From: Candidatus Kaiserbacteria bacterium
Lineage (GTDB): Bacteria > Patescibacteriota > Minisyncoccia > Phycocordibacterales > UBA2100
Assembly: GCA_016217925.1 (NCBI GenBank)
Contig: JACRFK010000004.1
Coordinates: 133,869-197,868, forward strand
DNA: 64,000 nt
Direction of reading: 5' to 3'
Of this stretch, positions 231 through 27,238 are shown piece after piece. The notes under the pieces were generated by a model, which was not told the origin of the DNA, made no database searches, and was given only the letters and a program-made list of their open reading frames with translations. Within the stretch, counting starts at the first letter, position 1; every line of letters begins with the position of its first letter. Both the position numbers and the translations under genes were made by a program.

Positions 231-998
231 TCACTTGCTCGATAGTTTCCACAGGGATTCGAAGAAATCGCGGTAGCCGTCGGCGACCTCTTTGCTTGAT
301 AGGGTGAAACAGAGAATCTCGTCGCCATACACGACGAACGAAACAGATTCGGGGAATATTTCAATGCCTATAATCCCGACACCAAGCCCGGGAAGGATTT
401 TGTATGTCCAGTTGAACCAGTTTTTTTCACGTTCTGATAAATCTACTCTTCGTGATTCGACGCCGAGGTAGCGAATGGTGATATTTTTTTCTCTTCGCAA
501 CGTATCAAGTTCTTCAAGGAAGCCGAGGTTCTCAACGACCTGTCGATACCTGTCGGCAGCACTTGCGATCGCACACCAAACTGTGTTGTTCGGCATGTTT
601 CGGAGGATGTTCATTTGGTGCGACATGAATGCGACGTCACCTTGATATACTTCAAAATCCTGTTCGTGTTTCCCGGCGAAGCGATCTTGCAACTCCCTAA
701 CGATCGACTGCGTTGTGAGCCTTTTTTCTTCTACCAGACTCAAAAGCCGATTTGGAGTGTTCGCACTGAATTTCTTACGGCCGTTTTTTATAACGTGTCT
801 CGCAAGTCCCAACTCCTCAAGCCGCGTGAGCGCATTGTAGACAAACTGCCCATGCAATCCTGTGGCGCGTATCAATTTTGAAGAGCCGATGTCGCGATAT
901 GGAAGGAGAGACAAGTAGACCTTCGATTCTTTTTCGCTCAAACCGAGACCCTCAAGTTTTTTTGTGAGCTGCAGACTATCATCAAACTTTTTTGACAT
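231..998 (-). CDS. TrmB-family winged-HTH transcriptional regulator (paralog 1 of 4 in this window)
   Basis: 255 aa; N-terminal L..LGLSEKESKVYLSLL motif typical of the TrmB HTH. Confidence 0.75.
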   Translation of the reverse strand: MSKKFDDSLQLTKKLEGLGLSEKESKVYLSLLPYRDIGSSKLIRATGLHGQFVYNALTRLEELGLARHVIKNGRKKFSANTPNRLLSLVEEKRLTTQSIVRELQDRFAGKHEQDFEVYQGDVAFMSHQMNILRNMPNNTVWCAIASAADRYRQVVENLGFLEELDTLRREKNITIRYLGVESRRVDLSEREKNWFNWTYKILPGLGVGIIGIEIFPESVSFVVYGDEILCFTLSSKEVADGYRDFFESLWKLSSK

Positions 999-3743: not shown

Positions 3744-4271
3744 TTATTGGGTCGCCGCCGGGGCCTGTGTGGTAGCGGGCGTCGAGGTGCCGGGCTGTAC
3801 CTTCACGAGCTGAACCTGGAAAATAAGCGTCGAATTGGCTGGAATTATGACTTTTCCGGAAGCTGGGTCTTTCACGTCCTGATCCCCGTAGGCAAGGCTC
3901 GGGGGAATCGCGAGGAGACGCTCTCCACCTTCTTTCATGGTGTTGATACCGATCTGGAAGCCGGGAATAAGGCCCTGAGAACCGAGTACGAAGGTAAGCG
4001 GCTTGTTGTCGTGAGCAGCGGAACTGTCAAAGACGGTACCATCGGTAAATTTACCTACGTAGAGGACGGAGACGGTGTCTCCGGGCTTTGCTTCAAGGCC
4101 CGTGCCCACCTTCACGTCTTGGCCCTGTACCTGATTAGCCTGATCTGGAGTCGTGGTTGCAGTTTGTTGCGCAGGCGCTGCCGGAAATATCTTTGACTTG
4201 TAAACGAAATAACCACCAATAAGGATTACAATAATAACGACGAACGCGATAACCATTGCTTTTGTATTCAT
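3744..4271 (-). CDS. FKBP-type peptidyl-prolyl cis-trans isomerase, membrane-anchored
   Basis: N-terminal TM helix; GDTVSVLYVGKFTDGTVFDSS...LIPGFQ...GGERLLAIPPSLAYG FKBP motifs. Confidence 0.8.
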   Translation of the reverse strand: MNTKAMVIAFVVIIVILIGGYFVYKSKIFPAAPAQQTATTTPDQANQVQGQDVKVGTGLEAKPGDTVSVLYVGKFTDGTVFDSSAAHDNKPLTFVLGSQGLIPGFQIGINTMKEGGERLLAIPPSLAYGDQDVKDPASGKVIIPANSTLIFQVQLVKVQPGTSTPATTQAPAATQ

Positions 4272-7431: not shown

Positions 7432-7512
7432 ATGGCGGCAGATTTGAAGGGGCTTAAGACGCAATTTCTCCCCGCCGGAGGCGGGTCCTCCTCCGGAGGA
7501 GAATACTTATGA
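7432..7512 (+). CDS. upstream ORF (26 aa) mimicking the Xer N-terminus; its TGA stop overlaps the xer ATG (ATGA)
   Basis: [26 protein letters not shown]; residues [10 protein letters not shown] match Xer residues 3-12 (9/10) with 8 of 10 codons synonymously different. Confidence 0.4.
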
Positions 7513-9686
7513 AAGACTTAAAGGGTTTGAAAACCGAGTTTCTGGAGTATATAGAAATTGAAAAAGGGCGGAGCGTGAAGACGGTCGAGAATTATGACCG
7601 CTATCTCATGCGGTTCCTCAATTTTGCAAAGGTGAAGTCCCCTGCCCAGATAACCGAGCAGATGGTGCGTGAATTCCGTATCACACTCAATCGTTCCGCA
7701 GGGGTTACAGGCACGATGAAGAAGAATACACAAAATTATCACCTCATCGCGCTGCGCGCGTTCCTCAAGTTCCTCCGCAAGCGTGATATCGAATCGCTCA
7801 ATCCCGAGCGTATCGAACTTGCCAAGGTCGGTGGACGCGATTTGGATCTCATTACCGCCGATGAGCTCAACAGGATCATGCGTGCGCCCACGGGTGACGA
7901 GCTAGGGGGTCTGCGCGACCGCGCGATCCTCGAACTTTTGTTTTCTACCGGTTTGCGCGTCTCGGAACTCTGCAATTTGAATCAGGATATTGACCTCTCT
8001 CGCGATGAGTTCTCGGTGCGCGGCAAAGGAGAAAAGGTGCGCGTGGTATTTCTCTCGGCGTCCGCGAAAAAAGCGGTGGCCGAATATTTGAAAAAGCGCG
8101 GTGATATGAGCAAGGCGTTGTTCGTCAGTTACGGCAAAGGCGGCACGAGCAAGGGAAAAGATTTACCGCGCATCACTCCGCGCTCCGTCGAGCGATTGGT
8201 AAAACAGTACGCGATAAAAGCGGGCATCACGCGCAAAGTGACGCCGCATGTCATTCGTCACTGTCTCCACGCGGAAACGCGAATAATGGGAAACCCTTCG
8301 CTCACAACGGCGAAGGAGTTGTTCGCATCCGAAAAGCAAAAGAAGGTCCTTGGATTTGATTGGAAAAACAATCGTCTCATGCGGGCCTCGATTAAGAGAC
8401 GTGAAACACATTCCACACAACGCCTGATTTCTTTATGGGCGGACGGCCGGGAAATTTGCTGCACCCCGTACCACAGCTTTTTCACCCCGAGCGTTAACGG
8501 TATTGTGCCGATACAAGCACAAGACCTGAAAGTTGGGGATTATGTAGCGGGAGTTCGCAGTGTTCAATGGTCCCAGGGAAGTAGACCCGAAAGCGAATCC
8601 ACGGACTTTTGGAGATTGCTTGGATATATTCTTGGTGATGGAACGCTTAGTGAGGCACGGCGAGGTATTATCATAAATGATAAAGAACGTCGCCACATTG
8701 ACCTATACAACGAAATTGTTTTTCGTGTGACGGGCAGGTGCGGAACCGTCACTAAATTGTCAGGCGGCAATGGGTACGCGCTCAATATCTACAATGTTGG
8801 TTTTCTGAAAAAGGTACGAGCTCTTGGAATTACACAGCGTTCAAAAGAACGGCGTGTCCCCGCGGGCCTGTTTCAGGAGTCCGAGACCGCGATCCGAGCC
8901 TTTCTTGCAGGCTATTACGATGCCGAAGGAAATAACGGCAGGATTAAGATGTTCTCCGCAAGTAAGGAACTTCTGAAAGACATACAAATGTTGCTGCTCC
9001 GGTTGTCTATCGAGAGCATACTGCTCCGCCGAGAGCGGCGAGTGAAACTTCCCCAAGGTCGGGTCATTGACCACGTCATATACATACTGCATGTGACGTA
9101 TCCACCAAGCGAGAATCGCTTTGTGGAACTCATACCAACATTCAAACAACGCATACGACCGAAAAAAGAGTGGCAGCGACTCGATATTGCATTACCTACG
9201 CAACCACTGATTCGAGGACTCTACCCCCTTTTGCTTGCCAAGAGGGGTTTCATCCATTGGCTCGGTAACCGTTATGGCATACGGTACCTGAAACGTTATA
9301 CAAGAATATGTACAACACCGCTGCTGCTCTCTGTGTTTCTTAAGGCCTGCAAAGAAAAAAGAATTCGAAATCCATTTATCAAGCAACTCGAGGTTCTCAA
9401 CCGACTCGATTCGATTCGATGGCTCCGAGTGAAGAAGCTGGAGATGGTCGGCGGTGTATCGAAAGTTTACGATTTCACGATAGAACCAACGCACAATTTC
9501 ATCACAGATGGTTTTATCTCGCACAACTCATTCGCGACTGACCTACTCGAAAATGGTGCCGATCTGCGTAGCGTGCAAGCGCTCCTCGGCCACGCCAACA
9601 TCGCAACGACCCAAGTCTACACGCACGTGACCGACAAACACCTCCGCGAAGTCCATCAGGCATTTCACGGCAAACGCCGCAAATAA
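7509..9686 (+). CDS. XerC/XerD-family tyrosine recombinase containing an in-frame intein
   Basis: N-terminal SAM-like domain; ...TPHVIRH then a 422-aa insertion then [34 protein letters not shown] (R-H box and catalytic Tyr region). Confidence 0.85.
8262..9527 (+). mobile_element. intein with LAGLIDADG homing-endonuclease domain inside the xer gene
   Basis: starts with Cys right after HVIRH; ends with His-Asn before Ser+1 (SFAT); block B TPYH; LAGLIDADG motifs [11 protein letters not shown] and [11 protein letters not shown]; C-terminal blocks [12 protein letters not shown]...ISHN. Confidence 0.8.
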
Positions 9687-10514: not shown

Positions 10515-11342
10515 TTGAAAATGTTCAAACGTCTAGTCGCGATGCTGCTCGCGGTTTCCCTGTGTATGCCCCATGTGGCGTTCGCAGACCCGCTTGGCGG
10601 TATGAGCGCTTCGTATAAGGCGCTCTTCAGCAAGTACATCACTCCCGACTTCGTCCGCGGTGTCTACATCGACAAGTCACTGTCGGTCGACAGTTGGTGC
10701 ATGCGCGACCAGTGGGTCAACCCACAAACCGGCAAGCGCTGTCGGGACGGGACCGAAAGGCCGCTCTACAAGTTCGTGATTCCGCAAATCGTCTACCAAT
10801 CACAAGGCGGCACGAACTCTACGGCGGCTGCGGTGCGGAATCGCCGCTCTGCGTCGCCTCTCGGCGCCGGTCAAGAAATCGGCGTCGAAGAGCTTGAGCC
10901 GAGCTACTATCCGGCCGAGTTCTACCTGCGCGGTCCGCCTCGTGAGAAGAACGCCTACGGAGTGTTTCCGTGGACGTCATTCATCGAGCGGGTCGTCGTG
11001 GAGGCGGGCTCGTTCGTCCCCAACAAGGCGCCGGCGCTCGTTGCATTCGATGTCGCGGGTCGTGCGTATGATTCCGACATCAAACGAGCGTTGCCAGCAC
11101 ATCACGAGTTCGGTGAGAGCGAAGTATGCTGGGTCATAGCCCAGCTTTCGAGCGCACAGCGCAACGGTGAGACCGGTGCACTCGTCGCTAATGGCCACGC
11201 GAACGTGTTCTACACCGCCTCCCATGCCGTACTTCTGATTTGGTGCGGCGCGAAGATCGGGTGGGGCATCGGAGCGTGGCAAAGCGGGAATAACCGGTGG
11301 GAAACCGGTGACCGGGTCTTCATTCCGAAACCGGCGACCTGA
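10515..11342 (+). CDS. secreted hypothetical protein with signal peptide
   Basis: 275 aa; N-terminal MKMFKRLVAMLLAVSLCMPHVAFA signal peptide; no domain recognised. Confidence 0.55.
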   Translation: MKMFKRLVAMLLAVSLCMPHVAFADPLGGMSASYKALFSKYITPDFVRGVYIDKSLSVDSWCMRDQWVNPQTGKRCRDGTERPLYKFVIPQIVYQSQGGTNSTAAAVRNRRSASPLGAGQEIGVEELEPSYYPAEFYLRGPPREKNAYGVFPWTSFIERVVVEAGSFVPNKAPALVAFDVAGRAYDSDIKRALPAHHEFGESEVCWVIAQLSSAQRNGETGALVANGHANVFYTASHAVLLIWCGAKIGWGIGAWQSGNNRWETGDRVFIPKPAT

Positions 11343-15852: not shown

Positions 15853-16647
15853 TCATTTCTTTTCGTGTCCGATTTCGCCGACAGTGGAACTATGATCGCG
15901 CATGAAATCGAACATCATGCGCAGCGTATGTGCTATCGTCGCGTCTTCGATAAGTACTGCGATCGGTCTCTCTTGTGCAAAAGAAAATATTGCTACCGTT
16001 TCTCCGTATATCGCGAATTCAGTGTCCATCGCGTAGCGCGCAGGAATGAACGAGGCTGTACGGCGGAATTTCTTGTCGTGTTTCGCCGCTTCGCGCGCCA
16101 CAGCCGAGTCAGGCGTTACATAGGCAACGTCTATACCGAGCCTTGTGCGTTTGCGCATGTAGTGTTCGATAAATCCCGGACGCAATTTCGTAAACACAGA
16201 TTCGAAGCCAGTGATCTCATATATCCGCTTCTGCGGATTGTTCTCCAGGGTGTCCTCAAAGGCCTTCTCTACGCCCTCAGGTCCTTCAAAGTAGCGTATC
16301 TTGGGAAGTGCGCGTCCCCTCTCCCGCAAGAGTCGCAGCTGTGGCAGCGTATCCGCCACCTCGTCTTTTGCGTCGAGGAGCTCTTTGCCGCGCCGCTCGA
16401 TATAAGAAGGAAGCAGGCCCGGATCGATTGACCGGAACATCGCTACTCCCTGGCGCCGTTCTTCAAAAGCGAGCCCCTTCCGCTTCAGCTCTTCAAGAAT
16501 CCCGTACGTCGTGGTGCGGTTCAGTCGCGCCTCCCGGGCGATCGCCGAAGCGTAGAGCGGGCCACTCGGAAGAAGCGCAAGCATCACACGCGATTCTTTC
16601 TCGGAGAGACCGATGCTCGTGAGGGCTTTTCTGATGGCAGGGGGCAC
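15853..16647 (-). CDS. TrmB-family transcriptional regulator (paralog 2)
   Basis: LTSIGLSEKESRVMLALL N-terminal HTH. Confidence 0.7.
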   Translation of the reverse strand: MPPAIRKALTSIGLSEKESRVMLALLPSGPLYASAIAREARLNRTTTYGILEELKRKGLAFEERRQGVAMFRSIDPGLLPSYIERRGKELLDAKDEVADTLPQLRLLRERGRALPKIRYFEGPEGVEKAFEDTLENNPQKRIYEITGFESVFTKLRPGFIEHYMRKRTRLGIDVAYVTPDSAVAREAAKHDKKFRRTASFIPARYAMDTEFAIYGETVAIFSFAQERPIAVLIEDATIAHTLRMMFDFMRDHSSTVGEIGHEKK

Positions 16648-18138: not shown

Positions 18139-19608
18139 TTATGAAACGTGATGCTTCTCCCTCAATTTCTGTATGGCCGCTTCGTCCTCCTCTTCGCGGC
18201 GGTCTTTGCCTGCTTCGCCAAGCTTGCGCAGTTCGGCATCCTCAATTTTCATAAGTTCAGAGGCTTTCTTTTCCAGGTATTCCTCGGTGTTTTTGGCGGG
18301 CTCGTCGAGCACTTCTTCGAGGAGCGCGTGCAATATCCAACCGATGCGGGGGCCGGGCTTCTCGCCGAGTTCGATGAGTTTTGTGCCGTCGATCTTGAGC
18401 ATGCCGACGGAAACTGGATCGCGCATTGCTTCGTCCACCATCGACATGTATTTACGCAAACGGAACGGGTGCGCCTTGGGACGGCCGGTACCGATGCGAT
18501 CGCAGACACGCAGATTGAGAAGGTCGTTAATATTTTCCTTGCCCACACGCGCTATCACCCGGCGCACTGCCGAGAGTGTGACGACTTCCGGGTCCGAGAA
18601 AAACATATGCGTGCGTACGAGTGTCGCCACATTATGTGTCGTCTCTTTTGGAAACCTGAGCTCATTAAGTATCTTCTTGGTCATACGTGCCGAGACGACG
18701 TCGTGACCGTGAAATGTCCAATCTTTCTTCTCGTCCGACCATACACGGGTCGCCGGCTTGCCCACGTCGTGCAAGAGTGCGGCAAGGCGCACGTCGAGCG
18801 GCCAGTCCTTGTCTGCGGCGTGTTGGAGGCTTCGCATCAGGTGTTCGAATACATCGAATGAATGCGCCTGGTTTTGCGCACAACCGATACCCTCTTCTAA
18901 TTCCGGAATAACGTATTTGAGAATGCCGAGCTTTTGAGCCACATACAGAGCTTGCAGCGGGCGGGGACTTAATACGATGCGCACGAGCTCGTCGCGCACG
19001 CGCTCACGCGAGATTTTCGCAAGCTGTGCCGCTTGTGCATTGATACCTTCGGCCGTCTGCGCATCAATAACGAAATCGAGCTCGGCGGCGATGCGCACTG
19101 CGCGCAGCATACGCAACGCGTCTTCTTCAAATCGCTCGTGCGGATTTCCGACGGTCTTGATGCGTTTCGCCGAGAGATCTTCACGGCCGCCGTGCTCGTC
19201 GACGAACTCCCCCGTTGAGGCGTCATAAGCGATAGCGTTGATTGTGAAGTCGCGCCGCTTCAAATCTTCCGACAACGTATCGCTGAAGGTGACTTCGTCC
19301 GGATGGCGGGCGTTTGAGTACTTCCCTTCCGTGCGATACGGCGTCACCTCGATGACCTTGAGCCGCGGGTCTTCGGATTTTGTGACGACGCCGACGGTGC
19401 CGTACTCATTCTCATAAAAAGTGTCTTCGAAAAGTCCCTGGATTTTCTCCGGCGTCGCATCTGTCGTGATGTCCCAATCCTTCGGCTCGCGGCCGATGAC
19501 AAGATCGCGCACGCATCCGCCGACGAGGTACGCTTGGAATCCGGCAGTCTGCAGGGCGTCGGAAACGGACTGTACTTCTTTGGGGATGGCCAGCTTTACG
19601 GACTTCAT
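18139..19608 (-). CDS. cca: CCA-adding tRNA nucleotidyltransferase with HD domain
   Basis: GGCVRDLVIGREPKDWDITT, RRDFTINAIAYD, HD-domain LLHDVGKP; start set to MKSVKL because the upstream in-frame ATG overlaps tRNA-Arg. Confidence 0.85.
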   Translation of the reverse strand: MKSVKLAIPKEVQSVSDALQTAGFQAYLVGGCVRDLVIGREPKDWDITTDATPEKIQGLFEDTFYENEYGTVGVVTKSEDPRLKVIEVTPYRTEGKYSNARHPDEVTFSDTLSEDLKRRDFTINAIAYDASTGEFVDEHGGREDLSAKRIKTVGNPHERFEEDALRMLRAVRIAAELDFVIDAQTAEGINAQAAQLAKISRERVRDELVRIVLSPRPLQALYVAQKLGILKYVIPELEEGIGCAQNQAHSFDVFEHLMRSLQHAADKDWPLDVRLAALLHDVGKPATRVWSDEKKDWTFHGHDVVSARMTKKILNELRFPKETTHNVATLVRTHMFFSDPEVVTLSAVRRVIARVGKENINDLLNLRVCDRIGTGRPKAHPFRLRKYMSMVDEAMRDPVSVGMLKIDGTKLIELGEKPGPRIGWILHALLEEVLDEPAKNTEEYLEKKASELMKIEDAELRKLGEAGKDRREEEDEAAIQKLREKHHVS

Positions 19609-19634
19609 TTTGGTATTGTAACTCACAAGTGTGT

Positions 19635-19709
19635 TGGTGCTCCCGCCAGGATTCGAACCTGGAACGTCAGTTCCGAAGACTGATGTGATATCCATTTCAC
19701 CACGGGAGC
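19635..19709 (-). tRNA. tRNA-Arg (anticodon TCG), CCA encoded
   Basis: hand-folded cloverleaf: acceptor GCTCCCG/CGGGAGC, anticodon loop CTTCGGA, T-loop TTCGAAT, 3' ACCA. Confidence 0.8.
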
Positions 19710-19825
19710 TAGCGAGGGGCAAAATGAAAGCTTGCTTTCACTTTTCCCGAGCGACGATTCCGTATGCTCCAGACCTACGGGAGCGTTCACGCATAATACG
19801 CGGGCATGCCCCTGAATACAATCTG

Positions 19826-19896
19826 TGCGGATACGGGGAATCGAACCCCGATCTGTACCTTGGCAAGGTACCGTTCTACCACTAAACCATATCCGC
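19826..19896 (-). tRNA. tRNA-Gly (anticodon GCC)
   Basis: acceptor GCGGATA/TATCCGC, anticodon arm GTACC-TTGCCAA-GGTAC, T-loop TTCGATT; CCA not encoded. Confidence 0.8.
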
Positions 19897-19903
19897 GAGC
19901 GTC

Positions 19904-20584
19904 TCACATACTCGCATAATACTTCCGGTCCATCAACTCTTTTGGCAAGAGACTCATCCATTCGAGTATTTTCGTCTTAAAGTAACTGCTCGAAACCACA
20001 ATTATGCAAACGCCGTTCGGAAGTCGCTTCGTCTTGTGTCGTCCGGAAATCCTAATGCATTTCGTAAAGCTGTTCTTGTCGAGCGCGGAGTTTCTGGACC
20101 AATAAGTAAGGCACTCAGCGGCATTCAAGTCAGGATAAACGAGAACAGATGCCTTTATCTGTTTGCGCGGTATACGACATGCACGTGTCAGGAAAAATAC
20201 GAAGAGCCGTATCATCTCAGGATCAGTGTTCGTAAGGCGTGTATTATGCCGCGTAACCTTATCCCCCTCGCCCCAGTACAACATGAGTCCTGCTATAAAA
20301 AGAGGGTTGTATTTCAATTCTATGAACTCCTCCCGTGCTTCCCTCCGCGCCTCGTCGTAGGCGTTTTTTAGGTTGTTGCCGCGTATTTGATTAAGCTCGC
20401 GTAGCCTCTCTGTGCTCAACGTTGTGGCGGTCTTTGCGAGCCTCTTCCGGACACCTTGGGACCAATTCGCTTTACCAAACCAGCCCGAAAGGGTGGCTTT
20501 CGGAATCTTGAGAGCCTTGAGTATCTCGGAATAACTTTTCCCTTCACGGCGCATCGTGGTCGCAGCTTTCTTGTCGGCCCGCAT
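19904..20584 (-). CDS. HTH-domain protein with a single LAGLIDADG-like motif (possible homing-endonuclease-like mobile gene)
   Basis: N-terminal HTH-like GKSYSEILKALKIPKATLSGWF; motif GLMLYWGEGDKV; start set after the terminator hairpin at 20641-20668. Confidence 0.3.
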   Translation of the reverse strand: MRADKKAATTMRREGKSYSEILKALKIPKATLSGWFGKANWSQGVRKRLAKTATTLSTERLRELNQIRGNNLKNAYDEARREAREEFIELKYNPLFIAGLMLYWGEGDKVTRHNTRLTNTDPEMIRLFVFFLTRACRIPRKQIKASVLVYPDLNAAECLTYWSRNSALDKNSFTKCIRISGRHKTKRLPNGVCIIVVSSSYFKTKILEWMSLLPKELMDRKYYASM

Positions 20585-20595
20585 ATATACAGGAT

Positions 20596-20628
20596 AACAC
20601 GGGAGTTCGATTCTCCTCGCTCGCTCTA
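20596..20628 (+). other. tRNA 3'-half-like fragment (T-arm plus acceptor 3' strand without a 5' partner)
   Basis: ACGGGAGTTCGATTCTCCTCGCTCGCTCTA; no complementary acceptor 5' strand found within 700 bp upstream. Confidence 0.3.
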
Positions 20629-20640
20629 AGAACCAACGAA

Positions 20641-20668
20641 GAAAAACGCCGGGCATCCAGCGTTTTTC
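20641..20668. terminator. bidirectional terminator
   Basis: AAAAACGCcgggcatccaGCGTTTTTC. Confidence 0.5.
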
Positions 20669-20690
20669 TTTGTGCAGAAGCTAATAAATC

Positions 20691-21683
20691 TTACTTCTTT
20701 GGCGGCGGAGTGATGATCGTTGCGGAAGTCGTTTTTGTCTCTTGGATGAGGAGCAGTTGGGTTACGCGCGGATGATTCCAGAACGCTGCAAGTAAGCCCA
20801 ATACGGCGATAAGGAATGCGGCGAGAGGCATCCAGAGAGCTGCTCTGCACGAGATAGAGAAGTACCAGAACGCGAGAAGAAGGAGCAGAAGACCAAGGAT
20901 TATGGTCGCAATTCGCTCAGGAGTGCGGGCCCATGTCGCAGCCATCGGGAATTCAGCCCAGAGGGCAGCGCCAACGATAAGCGTGTACAGCACGAGTAAG
21001 ACGAGCCACAGACGGTATGCACCCACGTCCGTCGAGCATATGTTGCGCAAAGGATTGGACACGGTCTTCACGACAGGGGCCGGAGCGACGTTTGTAATGG
21101 CGGGAGCTTGGGTCGCGGCTGTCGTAGAAGGAGCCACGGTTGGTTTGACAGCCGGGTTCACGACAGTGGTTATAGGTGCGACCGATGGCGCAGCAGTTAC
21201 GGTGCTTACTGGCTGGCTCGGAATCACCACGGGCCCTGAGCCCACGCTCATGGATACGACGGTCATACATACCGGGCTGCCAGTGCGCGCCGAGAGCAAG
21301 GTGACCGAGAGCGGAAGTGTGCCTACTATGGGCGTCGTCCCGATGTCAACGTGAACGCGGAGCATTCCCGAAGCGTCTACGCGGCGGGTCATAAGGTTGA
21401 AGGATATTGACGTGTTCCCTACTGAACCGAGAAGAGCAACATAAGAAGGATCAGAGACGGTGAATTCAAATGAATGAAGAGCCCCATCGTACATGTACGG
21501 AGTAAAGTTTGACACTGATATCGGCGCACAGGAATTACCGCCGACGGGCAATACCTGCGCCGTTTGCGCGGCGACCTCAAGTGCCGAGGCGTTCGTCGGG
21601 AAGGCCGTGAGAAAGAAGGTAAGAGCAGTCGAAGCAAGAGCAAGAACGAACAATTGATAAGTTGTAACTCCGACCTGTTTCAT
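20691..21683 (-). CDS. hypothetical secreted/membrane protein with Pro/Thr/Val-rich linker
   Basis: signal peptide, low-complexity PTVAPSTTAATQAPA linker, C-terminal TM helices. Confidence 0.55.
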   Translation of the reverse strand: MKQVGVTTYQLFVLALASTALTFFLTAFPTNASALEVAAQTAQVLPVGGNSCAPISVSNFTPYMYDGALHSFEFTVSDPSYVALLGSVGNTSISFNLMTRRVDASGMLRVHVDIGTTPIVGTLPLSVTLLSARTGSPVCMTVVSMSVGSGPVVIPSQPVSTVTAAPSVAPITTVVNPAVKPTVAPSTTAATQAPAITNVAPAPVVKTVSNPLRNICSTDVGAYRLWLVLLVLYTLIVGAALWAEFPMAATWARTPERIATIILGLLLLLLAFWYFSISCRAALWMPLAAFLIAVLGLLAAFWNHPRVTQLLLIQETKTTSATIITPPPKK

Positions 21684-21869
21684 ATGAGCGAAACGTAGTA
21701 TACGAGTGGCATTGGCGTCAAGGAGAAATCGTGTTGTAAATGGACGTTTTTACCGCTCTTCTGAGCCAAGAATTCTAAAGGACAAACGTTAATTATGCAC
21801 TTCAATCACGTGGTGTTTCTTGTTGGGCAAGAAAAGCGAGCAACGACAGAGATATTTTGTGCATGAAAC

Positions 21870-22070
21870 TGTGGACAACTCTGTGGACATGTGGATAACG
21901 GACAGAGCTCTTTGCGTTGATGTCCGTTCTATGTGCAATATATCCATATAAGAAGCCATATATCTGGAAGAGCAGCTATCGGGCATAAAAGACAAATAAT
22001 GTTACTTAAGAAACACAATAGAGATGTTTCGCGTGAAATCCTCTTCATAATATGGCGTATACTGTGGATA
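21870..22070. promoter_or_regulatory. cluster of DnaA-box-like 9-mers in a low-GC intergenic region
   Basis: TGTGGACAA 21870-21878, TGTGGACAT 21882-21890, perfect TGTGGATAA 21890-21898, TGTGGATAT 22062-22070, with AT-rich sequence between. Confidence 0.4.
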
Positions 22071-22071
22071 T

Positions 22072-22464
22072 ATGGTTGGTGACGCAGCGAGAAAAGAAGT
22101 TGGTCGCCTCGGGGAAGACATCGCCGCTCAGTTTCTTCTAAGGAAGGGTTTCAGTATCCTTGCCAGGAATTATCGGAAGCCGTGGGGCGAGATCGACATC
22201 ATTGCGGAAAAGGACGGGATTGTGCGGTTCGTGGAGGTAAAGGCAGTTTCACGTGAACCTCTGTCGAGTATTTCGGATGAGATATCCAACTACAGGCCTG
22301 AAGAGCAGGTGCATCCCACGAAGCTCAAGAAGATCTGCCGGACAGCTGAGCTCTACATGGCTAATAACAAAGACGAAAGGGAATTTCAGGTTGATGTAGT
22401 AGGCGTATTTCTGGACATGAGGGGCCGCAAGGCCCGCTGCCGGCTCCTGGAGCAAGTCCTGTAG
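22072..22464 (+). CDS. UPF0102/YraN-family endonuclease-like protein
   Basis: GEDIAAQFLLRKGFSILARNYR...GEIDIIA...RFVEVKA matches the YraN family. Confidence 0.7.
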   Translation: MVGDAARKEVGRLGEDIAAQFLLRKGFSILARNYRKPWGEIDIIAEKDGIVRFVEVKAVSREPLSSISDEISNYRPEEQVHPTKLKKICRTAELYMANNKDEREFQVDVVGVFLDMRGRKARCRLLEQVL

Positions 22465-22512
22465 CCCCACAGCGATAAAGGACACACTGTCCGATAGGAT
22501 GTCCCTTAGAAG

Positions 22513-23247
22513 CTAGACGGCCTTCCACATGAGTGAATGCATATTCCTGAATAAATCAGCAATATCTTTGTTCTCGATAACGACCGCAGAGAGATCCCGC
22601 AAGCTAATGAGGGCAACCTTTTCACTATAAATAAGCACGTCCACATTACTGTCGAACCAATCCGGGAGTTTTTTAGAGACCTTGTTTGAGGGCCCGTTCT
22701 TTTTACGTATCTCCTGTAGCGTTTTGTAGTGTTTGTCTGCGACGAACAGGTCGCGGCTCGCTATCGCGTATTGGGTTATAGATTTGTCAAAATCGTCGTA
22801 GTCTTGTTCGGTGAAATTCTCGAAGAATGTCGTAGGTGGGAAAATCGAATACACTACCCCGACTGTCTTGAAGAGATCCTCGTAGATGAGTTTCAGTTGC
22901 CGTTTCCCCTCGAAATACGTCACTCGCGGCCTATTTACGGCATACTCGTGAATAGTACCCATTTCAAGGATTGCGCCCTCTATATTGGCCATATTTCTAC
23001 GAAAGGTGGTGAAAACTCTCTGGGGGGCCACGGCGGAGTAATAGGTGCGTTTACCGGAGGGTTCACGTGTAACGTAGTCTTTTGCGAGCAGTTGGTCTAT
23101 GTACTCATAGCAAGATGCCCGTTTTATGCTGGTTTCTCGGGAGATCTGAGAAACGGTCATCCGTGGTCGTTTCAGTAGGGCGAGATATATATTTGCCTCT
23201 TTTTCATCCAGACCCATTGTCCGGAGTGCCTCCAGTGAGCGCTGCAT
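22513..23247 (-). CDS. TrmB-family transcriptional regulator (paralog 3)
   Basis: LRTMGLDEKEANIYLALL N-terminal HTH. Confidence 0.7.
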   Translation of the reverse strand: MQRSLEALRTMGLDEKEANIYLALLKRPRMTVSQISRETSIKRASCYEYIDQLLAKDYVTREPSGKRTYYSAVAPQRVFTTFRRNMANIEGAILEMGTIHEYAVNRPRVTYFEGKRQLKLIYEDLFKTVGVVYSIFPPTTFFENFTEQDYDDFDKSITQYAIASRDLFVADKHYKTLQEIRKKNGPSNKVSKKLPDWFDSNVDVLIYSEKVALISLRDLSAVVIENKDIADLFRNMHSLMWKAV

Positions 23248-23441
23248 GAGGGCAGTATCTCAGATACACAGAATATGTCAATAAATCCGACACATTTGTG
23301 CTAATAAGTATTCAGGAAGGGCTTAGAGTATAGATTTGATAGTCTATGATGTCGCATATTACAGCATATTATCTGAACTTCGTCCATAATGCTGCCAACT
23401 GGAGAAGGGCTCCAGAGTTCATTGAAAGGGAGACAAAGGCT

Positions 23442-23657
23442 ATGCGCAAGATTATTGGATGGTTGCTCATCGTCATTCTGCTCATTGGAGCAGGATATCT
23501 GGTTGTGAATCCCCCGAAAGCTGCCTGCTTTATAGGGTCGGGCCACTACACGAATCGTTGGAGAGGGCCACTTGAGGGCCGCGAACAGTGGATAGCTGAT
23601 CGTATGTCCAACGCGGCAGTTCGTGACGGTTGCTACGGCTGGGGGAGGGATCCATGA
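23442..23657 (+). CDS. small membrane protein (71 aa)
   Basis: ATG preceded by AAGGGAGA; TM helix IIGWLLIVILLIGAGYLVV. Confidence 0.4.
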   Translation: MRKIIGWLLIVILLIGAGYLVVNPPKAACFIGSGHYTNRWRGPLEGREQWIADRMSNAAVRDGCYGWGRDP

Positions 23658-24136
23658 TCACTAATGCTTGCCACTTCAAAACCAAGTTCGGAATGTTCGA
23701 TCTAACGCTCCATAAGCGGTTCTGGTGGAGTAAAGGTTATCTAGCGCTCACCTACGGCGATACTGCAAGCGGCATACCTATAATCCGCCTGCAGTCAACT
23801 TGTCTCTTCGGAACGGCACTTCACTCGATTGAGTGTGATTGCAAACGCCAACTCAATGATGCGTTCAGGCAAATCAAGAAACATGGTCGAGGAGTCGTTG
23901 TGTATGCGCTCGAAGAAGAGGGAAAGGGGAACGGACTTGAAGACAAAATTGACTCGATGCTAGACAAATGCGGTCATCCTTACCTCGATAGTCTGTACGT
24001 TCTGGTGGATAAACGTAGGTATTCGGGTGCCGCGCGTGTTCTTACAGAACTTTCTGTTAGTAAACGCATCCACGTGCTTACCCAGAACGAAGAAAAGTGT
24101 GAAGCCCTTCGGAAAGCGGGTTTCGTTATTCTCTGA
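23654..24136 (+). CDS. GTP cyclohydrolase II (RibA)-like protein, short form
   Basis: zinc-site pattern C..(9)..CDC and GRGVVVYALEEEGKGNGLEDKI resemble RibA; start ATG preceded by GGGGGAGGG. Confidence 0.5.
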   Translation: MITNACHFKTKFGMFDLTLHKRFWWSKGYLALTYGDTASGIPIIRLQSTCLFGTALHSIECDCKRQLNDAFRQIKKHGRGVVVYALEEEGKGNGLEDKIDSMLDKCGHPYLDSLYVLVDKRRYSGAARVLTELSVSKRIHVLTQNEEKCEALRKAGFVIL

Positions 24137-24152
24137 AAGATGAGTTGTTCTC

Positions 24153-24187
24153 AGCCTCCGGTTTGACCCGGAGGCTTTTCTTTTGTC
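24153..24187 (+). terminator. rho-independent terminator
   Basis: AGCCTCCGGtttgacCCGGAGGCT followed by TTTCTTTTG. Confidence 0.75.
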
Positions 24188-24212
24188 TTGTGGTAGCATG
24201 CGCAACGAAGGA

Positions 24213-24283
24213 CGGGGCGTAGTATACCGGTAGTACGTCTGCTTTGGGAGCAGATAGACCGAGTTCGATTCTCGGCGCCCCGA
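24213..24283 (+). tRNA. tRNA-Pro (anticodon TGG)
   Basis: acceptor CGGGGCG/CGCCCCG with C1-G72, anticodon arm TCTGC-TTTGGGA-GCAGA, T-loop TTCGATT. Confidence 0.8.
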
Positions 24284-24421
24284 ATGCAATGAGGAAGAAC
24301 AGGCAAACTGCTTTGCCTGTGTCCGGAATCGAAAGGCGGAGCGCTGCCGCTTTGCGGCCGCGAGCCCGGGCCGGCGGTACTTATGAACAAAGCGAATTAG
24401 TAACCGTGGCCGATTCTCGGC
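24267..24421 (+). repeat. 20-21 bp direct repeat of the tRNA-Pro 3' end flanking a ~115 bp GC-rich palindromic segment (att-like)
   Basis: GATTCTCGGCGCCCCGAATG at 24267-24286 (inside the tRNA) and again at 24402-24421. Confidence 0.6.
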
Positions 24422-24449
24422 GCCCCGAATGTTGTGCGCAGCCGCAGTC

Positions 24450-25694
24450 CTACTTTCCGAGCTGCGCTACGTAGAGGTCTATCAATCTTGGCGCGGTGTG
24501 TGTATTAAAATCGAGTGCTTCAGCGACGATATCACCGCCGAGCGTGGTCGCGATGTCGAATTGTGTTTGGGTTGCGAGATCGCGATTGATGTAACTTAGA
24601 GTAACGGCGCGGAGGTCGCGCGTGGCGGTGGTTTCGCCCTCGCTCGTCGTTGATATGAGGGCGATGAGCCTGCCCCAGGCATTCACGACGGCGCCGCCCG
24701 AAGAGCCACCTTGCGCCTCGATGATGCCGCCGAGGGAGATGAGGTCGACCGTTTTTGTGGCGAATGTCATGAGCGCTCCTATCGTGGTCACCGAGGATGC
24801 TGGATACATATTGAATTGTGCCGCCGCCGCAAGGAATTCTGCGGGATAGGTGGCCACCAAGACCTGGTCGTCCTTGAAGCCGATGGCCTCTCGCGTGTCC
24901 ACGGGGAGATGGGGGAAGTAGCTCGGGAGCGGCGTACTGTCGACCGTGCCAGTTATGCGCAGTAGGGCGTAGTCGTGTTCACCGGTGCCGACCGGATTCT
25001 TCATCTCAATCTCGGGGGCGTGGACCTCGACCCATACGGGCGGGATGTAGAGGATCTCGGCGTGCCACCGTGGGGTCGCCGGTGCCCCCGTGCGAATAAC
25101 ACAAGATAGGTTAATGCGCGAGCTCTGAGAGAGGAGCACGTATTGCGCGACGTGTGCATTGGTGAGTATGACTCCTCGCGGGTCAATGATTACTCCGGAA
25201 CCGGAAATAGGGGATAGAGACGCCGCGCCGCGCGGCGTGCAAAGGATATTTACAAGTGCGGGTCGCGTAATCGCATTTATGGATTCAAATGAAACTGGCG
25301 CGAAGGAATAGGGGTTCTTGATACGCAAGGCCTGGTTGTCGGGCGGCCTCTGTTGTGCGACCGGCTGTTTTACCGTCACTTTTTTTACAACGGTTTTCGC
25401 TGAGGTAGTTGCCTTGGTCTGCTCGGTAGTTGAGGTCGCCAGGGGGAGGGGTGCGTCGGTCCCGATATTCACCGCTGCTGCCTGTGCCTCGCCCGTCGGT
25501 CTCGCCCCGCCGCCCGCGGGGCTCGTCTCGGGCTCTGCGACTATCGGAGTTATCGTAGGTGTCGGCCATTGGTAGAGAACGAGAAAGAAACCGCTCGCGA
25601 TCAGGGCGAGTGCCGCTATGTTGACTAAAAGTGAGGAGAGGCCGGATTTCATTTGCTTGAATATACGCTGTCTGGGTAGTTTTCGCAAAATCAC
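24450..25694 (-). CDS. membrane-anchored trypsin-like serine protease (HtrA/S1 family)
   Basis: TM anchor; His-site GSGVIIDPRGVILTNAHV; Ser-site GGSSGGAV. Confidence 0.7.
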   Translation of the reverse strand: MILRKLPRQRIFKQMKSGLSSLLVNIAALALIASGFFLVLYQWPTPTITPIVAEPETSPAGGGARPTGEAQAAAVNIGTDAPLPLATSTTEQTKATTSAKTVVKKVTVKQPVAQQRPPDNQALRIKNPYSFAPVSFESINAITRPALVNILCTPRGAASLSPISGSGVIIDPRGVILTNAHVAQYVLLSQSSRINLSCVIRTGAPATPRWHAEILYIPPVWVEVHAPEIEMKNPVGTGEHDYALLRITGTVDSTPLPSYFPHLPVDTREAIGFKDDQVLVATYPAEFLAAAAQFNMYPASSVTTIGALMTFATKTVDLISLGGIIEAQGGSSGGAVVNAWGRLIALISTTSEGETTATRDLRAVTLSYINRDLATQTQFDIATTLGGDIVAEALDFNTHTAPRLIDLYVAQLGK

Positions 25695-25719
25695 GAATTC
25701 AGTGTATTCTTCTCTAAAA

Positions 25720-25790
25720 GCGGGATTAGTTTAGTGGTAAAACGTCAGTTTTCCAAACTGAAGTTGGGAGTTCGATTCCCCCATCCCGCA
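25720..25790 (+). tRNA. tRNA-Gly (anticodon TCC)
   Basis: acceptor GCGGGAT/ATCCCGC, D-arm GTTT-AGTGGTA-AAAC, anticodon arm TCAGT-TTTCCAA-ACTGA, T-loop TTCGATT (one A-C mismatch in the T-stem). Confidence 0.7.
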
Positions 25791-25961
25791 TTAAAACTGC
25801 CGACGCCACAGCGACGCTGTGGCGTCGTGCTGGTTTTTGCGGGTGGGTGATGAGAAAGACGGAGGCGGGGCCCCCGCGAGCTCGCGGGGAGCCGAGTCGG
25901 GGTCGCGGAAATTCGCGAGCGGCGGCGAACGAATTACCGTGACCGATTCCCCCATCCCGCA
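25773..25961 (+). repeat. 18-bp direct repeat of the tRNA-Gly 3' end flanking a ~150 bp GC-rich segment (att-like)
   Basis: CGATTCCCCCATCCCGCA at 25773-25790 and 25944-25961; the second copy is preceded by CGAATTAccgtgaCCGATTC, as in the tRNA-Pro island. Confidence 0.6.
25801..25838 (+). terminator. rho-independent terminator after tRNA-Gly
   Basis: CGACGCCACAGcgacgCTGTGGCGTCG followed by tgcTGGTTTTT. Confidence 0.65.
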
Positions 25962-26060
25962 CATTTCGACAGGTTCGACGAGCTCACCGCAAGCAAGTTC
26001 AGTGCAAGCGAAACAAAATCCCGCCACTACGGCGGGATTTTGTGTAGAAATGCTAAAAAG

Positions 26061-26336
26061 CTATTTCACCGCATCCTTCAAAGTCTTGGAAGCGCGGAAC
26101 TTCGGCACCCGCATCGCCTTAATCTGAATGGTAGCGCCCGTGCGTGGGTTTCTACCCGTGCGGCCCGCTCGTACCTTCGCCTGGAAGATACCCAAACCTG
26201 CTATCGAGACCTCCTGACCGGCCTTGAGCGTATTGGTAATCATGTCAATGATCGCCTCTACTGCGCGCTCACCGTCGGCCTTCGTGCAGCCGATTGTTGC
26301 TGCCACTTTCTCAACCAAATCCATTTTATTTGCCAT
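26061..26336 (-). CDS. hup: DNA-binding protein HU
   Basis: 91 aa; MANKMDLVEKVA...GLGIFQAKVRAGRTGRNPRTGATIQIKA is the canonical HU/IHF fold. Confidence 0.9.
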   Translation of the reverse strand: MANKMDLVEKVAATIGCTKADGERAVEAIIDMITNTLKAGQEVSIAGLGIFQAKVRAGRTGRNPRTGATIQIKAMRVPKFRASKTLKDAVK

Positions 26337-26497
26337 ATATTTTTGTTATACGTCTATTAAATAATAACCGTCATGCGCACTCGACCTCCCTCCAGACCAT
26401 TTTGAGCCGTATTTTCGGCGTGTCAATTGACAAAAGCCCATTTTCCACAGCTTTTGAGCCGCGGAATAACTACCGAAAATATGGCTCAACAGAAGCC

Positions 26498-27238
26498 TCA
26501 GACTCCCTTCTCCCACACGATATTGAATATCTGCCGCATCGCCTCAGCCGTCTGCTTATCGTCGATTATGGTCGTTTGAAGCTCGCGTTCATTGGTAATA
26601 CGGATGAAATTCTCGGCTATTTCAATCGATTGCGTCGGCGGGTAGGTGTAGTCCTTCAGGTATTTGACTTTTATATCATCGTTATTCTTTGCCAATTTGA
26701 CCATGTCATTCTCAGTGTTACCTTTCTCCACGATAACCTTGAAAGATATTCCGTCGGCAACAGCTTTCCTGTCCCATCTTTCGTACAGATGAAGGACCTT
26801 CTCGTCAACCCCCTTAAGATTGCTATAGAAGCAGCACAGCGTTTTACCGAGAAGTTCCCGATACTTGTAATCGCATGCCTGCGCGACACCGCTCATGCCG
26901 CTAAAGTACAGCACATCGGGTCTCCGGCCACCGAGCGAGTGCAACTGTGGCACTATAGCTCGCACCGATTTGAGCCGCGATTCCTGTTCGGTGAGGAATT
27001 CATTGATATCTCGTGCCGAAAAAAGGGCTTTTTTCGCATGTGGGACCTTGAGCACCAACCCTTTCTTGCGTAAATCTTCCAAAGTCACATACACAGTAGG
27101 TTTTTTAACGTCGCATGTTTCCGCGATACGGTATGCAGTACCCGTACCAAGCGATAAGAGAGCAAGGTATACGACGGACTCTTTTTCGGTAAGCCCGATT
27201 TCCTCCAACTCCCGAACAAAACCCGATTCTTTAACCAT
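26498..27238 (-). CDS. TrmB-family transcriptional regulator (paralog 4), divergent from the transporter gene
   Basis: LEEIGLTEKESVVYLALLSLG N-terminal HTH. Confidence 0.7.
   Translation of the reverse strand: MVKESGFVRELEEIGLTEKESVVYLALLSLGTGTAYRIAETCDVKKPTVYVTLEDLRKKGLVLKVPHAKKALFSARDINEFLTEQESRLKSVRAIVPQLHSLGGRRPDVLYFSGMSGVAQACDYKYRELLGKTLCCFYSNLKGVDEKVLHLYERWDRKAVADGISFKVIVEKGNTENDMVKLAKNNDDIKVKYLKDYTYPPTQSIEIAENFIRITNERELQTTIIDDKQTAEAMRQIFNIVWEKGV

Follow-up and report, generated by a model that had tools for sequence, protein, structure and literature searches.

Why should the 3' end of an intact tRNA gene be repeated a short distance behind the gene on the same strand? This question is raised by a 64,000-nucleotide stretch of a Candidatus Kaiserbacteria genome (assembly GCA_016217925.1, contig JACRFK010000004.1, positions 133,869 to 197,868; hereafter the window), in which two of the four tRNA genes detected with ARAGORN and Rfam, those for tRNA-Pro(TGG) and tRNA-Gly(TCC), bear an insert that ends in such a repeat. 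We describe these inserts as members of a family of small structured elements, each of which lies exactly between the discriminator base of a tRNA gene and a second copy of its C56-N73 segment. We lean towards the view that the family is a non-autonomous, structured, T-loop-targeting insertion element specific for the 3' ends of tRNA genes in Candidatus Kaiserbacteria (Patescibacteria).

Two tRNA genes with a displaced 3' end

The tRNA-Gly(TCC) gene (25720-25790, forward strand; 72 bits against the Rfam tRNA model) is intact and encodes no CCA. A repeat search showed that its C56-A73 segment, CGATTCCCCCATCCCGCA (25773-25790), recurs at 25944-25961 with 18 of 18 positions identical and a spacing of 171 nt from start to start, exactly as a preliminary description of this locus had reported. 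The tRNA-Pro(TGG) gene on the same strand (24213-24283) is likewise intact, and the same search returned a 29-nt repeat with 90% identity (24258-24286 and 24403-24431). Its exact part spans 21 nt: the first copy comprises C56-A73 (24266-24283) and runs on to 24286, and the second, at 24411-24431, holds C56-A73 and 3 further nucleotides that match by chance.

Ahead of the second repeat copy both loci carry a related motif, CGAATTAGTAACCGTGGCCGATTC at 24393-24416 in the Pro insert and CGAATTACCGTGACCGATTC at 25930-25949 in the Gly insert. The exact string ACCGTGRCCGATTC has only two sites in the 64 kb, starting at 24403 and 25936, which bears out the earlier remark on a motif common to both loci, and a longer gapped pattern gave no match in 100 shuffles. 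Where the tRNA-Gly gene reads GGGAGTTCGATTC (GGGAGTT), its second copy reads CCGTGACCGATTC (CCGTGAC); since the Gly copy thus differs from its own tRNA upstream of C56, the likeness of the two loci extends beyond T-arm conservation. Together with the shuffles, this mismatch rules out both chance and T-arm conservation as the source of the motif. When the two inserts were aligned with each other, as the preliminary description had proposed, they were alike at the right-end motif, and the remainder gave no significant plain pairwise alignment. Their kinship is visible only through a family alignment and the structure described below. A second, independently made Logan assembly of this organism (L047; related loci are designated by L numbers throughout) contains both elements unchanged and with identical model scores, which excludes an assembly artefact. 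The remaining tRNA genes of the window (Gly-GCC and Arg) have no such structure, and an element-model search of the window with filters off returned only the two known copies.

As a separate observation, the T stem of the window tRNA-Gly(TCC) (25768-25782, GGGAG/CCCCC) contains an A52.C62 mismatch, also seen in L034, L038 and L057; it is fully paired in L035 (GGGAG/CTCCC) and in L040 and L045 (GGGGG/CCCCC).

A family of tRNA-linked inserts

We recovered ten full copies and several truncated or divergent ones, placed after genes for tRNA-Pro, tRNA-Gly(TCC), tRNA-Gly(GCC) and tRNA-Arg, with a fragment after a tRNA-His. The window inserts measure 124-153 bp and the family members about 125-155 nt; they are GC-rich and contain no open reading frame (ORF). 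Precise, polymorphic and decaying inserts are thus present at four tRNA species at least. This upholds the earlier proposal that the two window structures belong to one family, there being copies in at least seven other assemblies and likeness outside the tRNA-derived part. Its wording in terms of islands with attachment (att) sites is not borne out: inserts of 124-153 bp with neither a gene nor an adjoining integrase do not support att-bounded islands of one recombinase.

The copies came from several kinds of search. One motif scan each of representative genomes and of metagenomes was carried out, both with a motif biased towards subtype A (see below). The former gave 30 matches, 28 of them chance occurrences in coding DNA far from any tRNA; the two real ones were in L022, a syntenic metagenome-assembled genome where the motif follows tRNA-Pro, and in L015, where a fragment follows tRNA-His. 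The latter gave four, two by chance in coding DNA and two real (L045, tRNA-Pro; L046, tRNA-Gly(GCC)). All real copies from these scans were linked to tRNA genes, always on the tRNA strand and directly after the tRNA. Whole-locus repeat searches then revealed an element with a perfect 3'-end repeat at tRNA-Gly(TCC) as well in both L022 and L045. A covariance model built from six copies matched after tRNA-Arg (L040), tRNA-Gly(TCC) and tRNA-Gly(GCC) (L057/L058) and tRNA-Gly(TCC) (L051-54), with two weaker matches at a contig end. The repeats flanking the inserts in L022, L045 and L057 are 18-22 nt long. The fragments are reduced in various ways: L015 retains the 3' half of helix P3 (see below) only, and the L022 Gly-GCC fragment a P3-like hairpin and a 9-nt repeat. 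Three motif scans of IMG/VR viral contigs found only chance matches inside protein genes. With a threshold of E<=1, a cmscan of 19000-27000 against Rfam 15 found the four tRNAs and, at chance level, four other matches, none over the inserts, so that ribozymes, HEARO/IscB, TnpB-related motifs, Y-RNA-like families and tmRNA were among the Rfam families without a match. Literature searches turned up no description of such tRNA-end elements.

Several contigs end at or just past an element (L051 and L052 at ~10570-10970, L046 and L015), which suggests repeat-induced assembly breaks; at the L051 end two tandem element-like units occur with no tRNA detected. We also noted that both tRNA-Gly genes of L022 have their own 5' end duplicated 80-83 nt upstream (GCGGGATTAGTTT; GCGGATATGG), the duplicates lying at 3961-3973 and about 292-301 (minus-strand view), and that the two intervening segments both contain CGGTGGrTGATAC. 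These duplications may be a 5'-side counterpart of the 3' elements.

The conserved fold

On the tRNA strand the full copies share a common plan: a linker, a hairpin (HP1), a three-way junction made of a closing helix P1 and two further helices, P2 and P3, and finally the second copy of the tRNA 3' end (copy 2). The linker begins right after the discriminator and is often purine-rich (TGAGGAAG), and the loop of HP1 is frequently CUGC. In the Gly element, linker (10 nt), HP1 (25801-25827) and a U-rich tail (25828-25839) occupy 25791-25839. The 13-nt arms of HP1 are followed by TGCTGGTTTTTG, and the GC-rich stem with the U run TGCTGGTTTT has the features of an intrinsic terminator; this is the terminator hairpin of the preliminary description, correctly placed there. 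A U run also follows HP1 in L057 Gly(TCC) and L046, and is lacking in the Pro type, where the linker (ATGCAATGAGGAAGAA) and HP1 (24300-24319, loop CUGC) span 24284-24319, with the same HP1 in L045.

After HP1 comes the left arm of an inverted repeat (IR-L), a run resembling the 5' strand of the T stem followed by (A)ATCGAA(A/G)G, the antisense of the T-loop and the 3' strand of the T stem. It provides the 5' strand of P1. The 3' strand is furnished by CGATT and the T-stem 3' strand of copy 2, whereas the acceptor 3' strand and discriminator are left as a tail. The Gly IR-L, GGGTGATGAGAAAG (25845-25858), was placed with alignments, duplex energies and minimum free energy folds; it consists of a T-stem-5'-like segment and a degenerate antisense T-loop, and its arm reaches back to 25838 (TGCGGGTGGGTG), the acceptor tail being a possible extra pairing partner. 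The Pro IR-L is TCCGGAATCGAAAG (24322-24335). The base of helix P2 has three pairs; above it come a conserved GGA/GA internal loop (3x2) and a tip that is free in sequence and length, being a hairpin of unrelated sequence in every copy. It covers 25858-25898 in the Gly element, with a GAC/GUC base and the apical palindrome CCCCGCGAGCTCGCGGGG (25872-25889), which is the GC-rich palindromic stretch described earlier at that place, and 24335-24366 in the Pro element, with a GGC/GCC base and a short apical hairpin. Helix P3 comes in two forms, GGCCGaCGGyACU...AGUrACCGUGGCC in subtype A and GGUCGCGGAAAUU...GUGACC in subtype B. The Pro element has the former (24368-24411, GGGCCGGCGGTACTT...AGTAACCGTGGCC, with the shared motif included) and the Gly element the latter (25899-25944, GGGGTCGCGG...CCGTGACC). 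The shared motif, CGAATTACCGTGAC in the Gly element, is the 3' strand of this covarying helix and not a recombinase arm site.

A MAFFT alignment of six copies analysed with RNAalifold had 87.7% of its cells paired, against 20-39% when the strands were slid, with nine compensatory pairs. In an alignment of ten copies, fitted to the model, 89.2% of cells were standard pairs (29-42% slid), 18 of 30 pairs were compensatory, and none of 500 shuffles reached the covariation score. Compensation is evident in P3, where GTA/GTG within the motif is matched by GGTAC/GGCAC on the other strand and GGCC/GGCC of subtype A becomes GGTC/GACC in subtype B, and at the P2 base, where GGC/GCC is replaced by GCC/GGC or GAC/GTC. 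G.U cells number 20 against six A.C cells, nine of the G.U cells coming from one invariant pair; this excess favours the tRNA-sense strand. There is no conserved ORF: relative to CGATTC the window copy and those of L057 differ in frame, and a stop codon occurs in the Pro type. A small ORF running through the element (window ORF 25819-26127) was discarded, its frame not being conserved. Given the covarying helices, the G.U excess and the unconserved reading frame, the inserts are selected as a single-stranded fold, be it RNA or single-stranded DNA, rather than as double-stranded arms for protein binding.

In seven of the ten copies IR-L complements the genuine T-arm of the upstream tRNA as well as, or better than, it does copy 2, and an alternative pairing with the tRNA itself is therefore possible. 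The T-loop portion of copy 2 has diverged in L051 but still pairs with IR-L, and the acceptor tail there is preserved exactly. The 5' arm of three Gly(TCC) copies (window, L057 and L045) is in addition similar to the acceptor 5' strand, yielding a look-alike of the tRNA top half. A universal mimicry of this kind was rejected, as acceptor pairing is notable only in these three and absent from the Pro type.

Insertion polymorphism and transfer between tRNA species

An identical 71-nt tRNA-Gly(TCC) is found in L045, where it is filled, and in L040 and L055, where it is empty. The downstream flanks of the three are alike, consisting of the promoter and start of a protease gene (CTTGAG...TATATTCA...ATG), and the filled allele differs from the empty ones by the element and a 20-nt repeat. 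No element was seen at any tRNA of this block in seven syntenic genomes (L034, L035, L037, L038, L041, L055 and L059). The closest relative of the window by protease identity, L034 (84%), has no element, while L022 and L045, at 54-57%, have one at both tRNA-Pro and tRNA-Gly(TCC); the distribution is patchy relative to the host. At the Gly(GCC) tRNA of L057 and in L046, the unit adjoining the tRNA is intact and has its repeat; behind it comes a second, decayed one whose repeat is degenerate. Such an arrangement would result if new copies entered at the tRNA and displaced older ones outward.

Based on pairwise identity of the core, with the tRNA-derived arms excluded, subtype A unites the Pro copies of the window, L022 and L045 with the Gly-GCC copy of L046 (P3 84-96% identical), and by eye the L015 His fragment carries its P3 3' strand. 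Subtype B comprises the Gly-TCC copies of the window and L057, the Gly-GCC copy of L057 and the Arg copy of L040 (P3 75-90% identical); three further copies fall outside both. As each subtype spans several tRNA species, subtype does not follow tRNA identity, and the two window copies, being of different subtypes, are not recent copies of each other. IR-L and copy 2 nonetheless fit the local tRNA each time: CCGGA/CTCGG at Pro, GGGAG/CTCC at Gly-GCC, and GGGGG or GGGTG/CCCCC at Gly-TCC. The L045 Pro and L046 Gly-GCC copies are only one base apart in P3 and four bases apart in IR-L; the near-identity of P3 indicates that the change in IR-L is not ordinary drift. It must be either strongly selected or templated from the target, in the latter case presumably by gene conversion or quasipalindrome correction.

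Four tRNAs of the syntenic loci have C at the near-universal U55 and read GTCCGATTC: L040 4275-4348, L055 8202-8272 and L056 4877-4947 (Pro), and L059 627-698 (Gly TCC). They are element-free alleles of exactly the two species, Pro and Gly(TCC), that bear elements elsewhere, and C also precedes C56 in the displaced copies (GGC|CGATT, GAC|CGATT). To judge from these sequences, the C55 variants may mark sites of past element loss or of gene conversion.

A possible mechanism and its rivals

If the family is indeed an insertion element, it would enter a tRNA gene between T55 and C56, regenerate the tRNA 3' end, add its hairpin behind it and displace the old 3' end, with mobility conferred in trans. 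With a fold selected as a single strand and the tRNA-sense strand preferred, its active form would be single-stranded, either a read-through transcript or one DNA strand. The mechanism that we prefer, though we advance it only tentatively, is that the folded strand recombines with the tRNA gene through a recombinase supplied in trans. P1 would then reconstitute a duplex copy of the T-loop/T-stem target, much as the attC sites of integrons and the attP(+) of phage CTX do for theirs. Once a new tRNA species has been entered, IR-L and copy 2 could be re-matched by gene conversion, by quasipalindrome correction or by selection for P1.

Several points weigh against this interpretation. No recombinase, transposase or reverse transcriptase adjoins any copy, and the viral-contig, genome and metagenome scans found neither a circular or free form nor an autonomous relative. 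P1 has merely 9-13 bp, below the length of a full tyrosine-recombinase core site; the L040 Arg copy has neither P1 nor repeat, and the repeats of L046 and L015 span only 9 nt. In subtype B the U run behind HP1 speaks against efficient co-transcription; the GGA/GA loop, on the other hand, has the look of RNA. The conserved fold is equally compatible with an RNA useful to the host. The sample amounts to about a dozen loci from one clade, and the ten-copy alignment is one that was fitted to the model.

The main rival, which we consider unlikely but worth setting out, is that the insert is a host-useful, structured small RNA in the tRNA trailer, in some copies mimicking the tRNA top half, co-transcribed with the tRNA, freed by the tRNA 3' processing cut and spread passively by homologous recombination after DNA uptake. 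Functional 3' external transcribed spacers of tRNA transcripts are known in Escherichia coli (3'ETS-leuZ). The tRNA itself, or enzymes that handle tRNA, would be the targets of the T-arm antisense segment and the acceptor-strand tail, and the tRNA with its 18-nt copy would serve as homology arms; the type IV pilus and ComEC competence genes encoded in the window fit this account. Also in keeping with it are the strong covariation, the bias towards the sense strand and the conserved GGA/GA loop, which is of a kind typical for RNAs that bind proteins. So are the invariable position directly after the tRNA on its strand, the L051 drift that spares both pairing and tail, the fit of IR-L to the genuine T-arm and the acceptor mimicry of the Gly(TCC) copies. 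However, half of the related genomes lack the element, truncated and decayed copies are common, and the subtypes hop between tRNA species, unlike a plain host gene. Moreover, the terminator-like HP1 and U run of subtype B precede the structured core, acceptor pairing is missing in the Pro type, and Rfam holds no match. Closer to the preliminary description is the idea that the inserts are scars of integrase-borne islands or prophages, attL and attR having been brought to 125-155 bp apart by interior deletion and the motif being an arm or core site of one integrase family. Direct repeats from the T-loop to the tRNA end are a textbook signature of tyrosine integrases, and Williams is said to have described, in 2002, an integrase pattern in which the repeat starts at the T-loop and the tRNA end is regenerated. 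The genes adjoining both tRNAs also vary among relatives (GtrA, EamA, YkoP, TrmB, helicase), and integration is a known and widespread source of tRNA gene fragments (PMC9897764). Nevertheless, deletions that arose independently would not converge on one architecture and one size across four tRNA species and seven assemblies, and a double-stranded arm site leaves unexplained both the compensation in three helices and a hairpin of free sequence at a fixed place. In addition, neither integrase nor cargo occurs at any copy and the variable neighbours are not flanked by tRNA repeats. This explanation is already disfavoured, and we regard it as improbable.

Still less probable is an RNA-mediated insertion, in which a read-through transcript is copied by a reverse transcriptase acting in trans and primed from a nick in the T-loop. 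The 3' tail of the transcript would have its complement in the bottom strand of a tRNA gene not yet occupied, and the C56-N73 segment of the target would become copy 2. Such a route would account for the constant match of copy 2 to the local tRNA and for a left boundary that coincides with the tRNA 3' processing site, and it agrees with a sense-strand fold. Yet no reverse transcriptase was found among 40 window ORFs or the genes called in those loci that have gene tables, there is no poly-A-like or other hallmark of retro-insertion, the matched IR-L is left unaccounted for, and HP1 of subtype B resembles a terminator. Other candidates were rejected on simpler grounds. A retron-like shape (a1/a2-msr-msd) is present but there is no reverse transcriptase, and a miniature IS200/IS605 element does not agree with the unrelated hairpins HP1 and P3 or with an 18-nt duplication, which is foreign to that family. 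A cleaving homing guide RNA would target itself, because the target is intact in filled alleles. A hammerhead or box C/D reading relies on GUGAUGAG of the Gly copy, which is not conserved in the family. A T-loop intron or split tRNA, finally, is at odds with the completeness of the upstream tRNA, and there is no evident bulge-helix-bulge motif.

Comparison with known systems

With tyrosine-integrase islands and prophages of the T-loop sublocation class (P4-like integrases) the elements share the insertion point in the T-loop, the direct repeat of the tRNA 3' end, the regenerated tRNA with its old 3' end displaced, and older remnants pushed outward. They differ in measuring 125-155 bp rather than kilobases, in having neither integrase nor cargo, in a covarying single-strand fold as opposed to double-strand arm sites, and in the internal antisense copy of the T-arm. 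Like cis-mobilizable elements (CIMEs) and miniature inverted-repeat transposable elements (MITEs), they are small, have no mobility gene of their own, occur in several copies per genome and are polymorphic for presence, with IR-L and copy 2 as an inverted repeat of 9-13 bp. CIMEs, however, are kb-sized, att-flanked remnants without a conserved fold, and MITEs have terminal inverted repeats and target duplications of 2-10 bp, unlike the 18-nt duplication seen here, which is bounded by the tRNA end. The ends of the linker and of P3 are not inverted repeats of each other, IR-L is internal, and IR-L and copy 2 are derived from the target.

The integron attC, ORF-less integron cassettes and the CTX attP(+) offer a closer parallel in that structure is conserved while sequence drifts, and in that a site is mimicked on a single strand by two inverted segments ~90 nt apart; as with integron cassettes, new units enter beside a fixed site and old ones shift outward. 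In contrast to these systems, no IntI was found in the window and phage genes are lacking, the target is a tRNA T-arm and not attI or dif, the R'/R'' consensus of attC is only loosely matched, and the junction reads GTT|C in place of G|TT. Against the consensus RYYYAAC...GTTRRRY, ATCGAAC of IR-L and GTTCGAT of the tRNA each agree at six of seven positions, and they do so in L046 and L051 alone. The IS110 bridge RNA and the right-element RNA (reRNA) of IS200/IS605 TnpB are comparable as structured RNAs of 100-200 nt with matches to both target strands and a target segment at the 3' end. The differences are that no recombinase or TnpB gene lies in or near any copy, that the 3' segment is partly paired in the fold, that the target is intact in the filled allele, and that Rfam gives no match to these families. 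Small RNAs from tRNA trailers and tRNA-like domains (3'ETS-leuZ, the tRNA-like domain of tmRNA, mascRNA-type processing) resemble the elements as same-strand 3' trailers or in having a 3' end that looks like T-stem and acceptor strand. The elements for their part mostly have no full acceptor helix and no T-loop (U54-U55 being replaced), and they are dispensable, polymorphic and able to hop between tRNA species.

Known occupants of tRNA genes are kilobase-sized and bring their own integrase, whereas here a fold of ~150 nt copies a part of the target into its closing helix. This fold, which is conserved and absent from Rfam and the literature searched, holds both a copy and an anti-copy of its tRNA target. 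It is possible, though we hold this with well under even confidence, that we are dealing with an undescribed class of non-coding mobile element of the Candidate Phyla Radiation (CPR), a ~150-nt single-stranded three-way junction of RNA or DNA that mimics the target T-arm, inserts between positions 55 and 56 and re-templates its antisense arm and terminal repeat from each tRNA that it enters, or else with a tRNA-mimicking regulatory RNA carried on such a cassette. A single-stranded mobile element that mimics the T-arm would be the smallest structure-defined, site-specific insertion element known. Its mobility would imply a trans-acting Patescibacteria machinery that recognises the T-arm of tRNA genes, together with a minimal substrate for it, both of interest to the biology of mobile elements and to tools for site-specific insertion. 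A host function would instead make it a new class of tRNA-linked RNA, in a lineage from which very few non-coding RNAs have been characterised. In practical terms, partial tRNA copies and contig breaks of this kind confuse the annotation and binning of CPR genomes.

Genomic context

The window is ordinary core genome, encoding HU, RNase Y, ClpP, trigger factor, NusA, type IV pilus proteins, ComEC and EF-G. The protease gene between the two tRNAs is trypsin-like, and its nearest homologues are labelled Candidatus Kaiserbacteria. A scan of the 40 large ORFs of the window found a single recombinase, of the Xer type, and no transposase, TnpB, reverse transcriptase, Cas1 or IntI. The gene of the Xer-type enzyme lies 14 kb from the elements and is syntenic in element-free relatives too. 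It encodes a tyrosine recombinase of 725 aa (7509-9686, forward strand) with a SAM-like N domain and a catalytic domain in two stretches, split by an intein that carries a homing-endonuclease domain of the LAGLIDADG type; in L055-L058 the same neighbourhood holds orthologues of 308-333 aa that lack the intein.

The genes adjoining both tRNAs differ from genome to genome. In the window 23630-24136 is GTP cyclohydrolase II-like, and in the syntenic loci we found EamA, YkoP, TrmB, GtrA, a helix-turn-helix protein, DUF2378 and a DEAD helicase; none of these variable genes, in the window or the syntenic loci, is bounded by tRNA repeats. Four paralogues of TrmB-family regulators occur within a 27-kb part of the window (231-998, 15853-16647, 22513-23247 and 26498-27238). 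The first two were confirmed by Pfam, and the pair that bounds the tRNA-Pro/Gly block was assigned by orthology to TrmB genes of the syntenic loci.

Between the syntenic genomes the tRNA units, with their promoters and any element, are inverted in place. Relative to the protease gene, tRNA-Gly(TCC) is antiparallel in the window, L034-37, L041, L051, L057 and L059, and parallel in L022, L038-40, L045 and L055; tRNA-Pro is inverted in L022. In L034 a run of 10 N, marking a scaffold gap, lies at ~300-440 between HU and tRNA-Gly(TCC). Beside it is an apparent second, inverted copy of the protease promoter and start codon, which may be a misjoin or a local inverted duplication.

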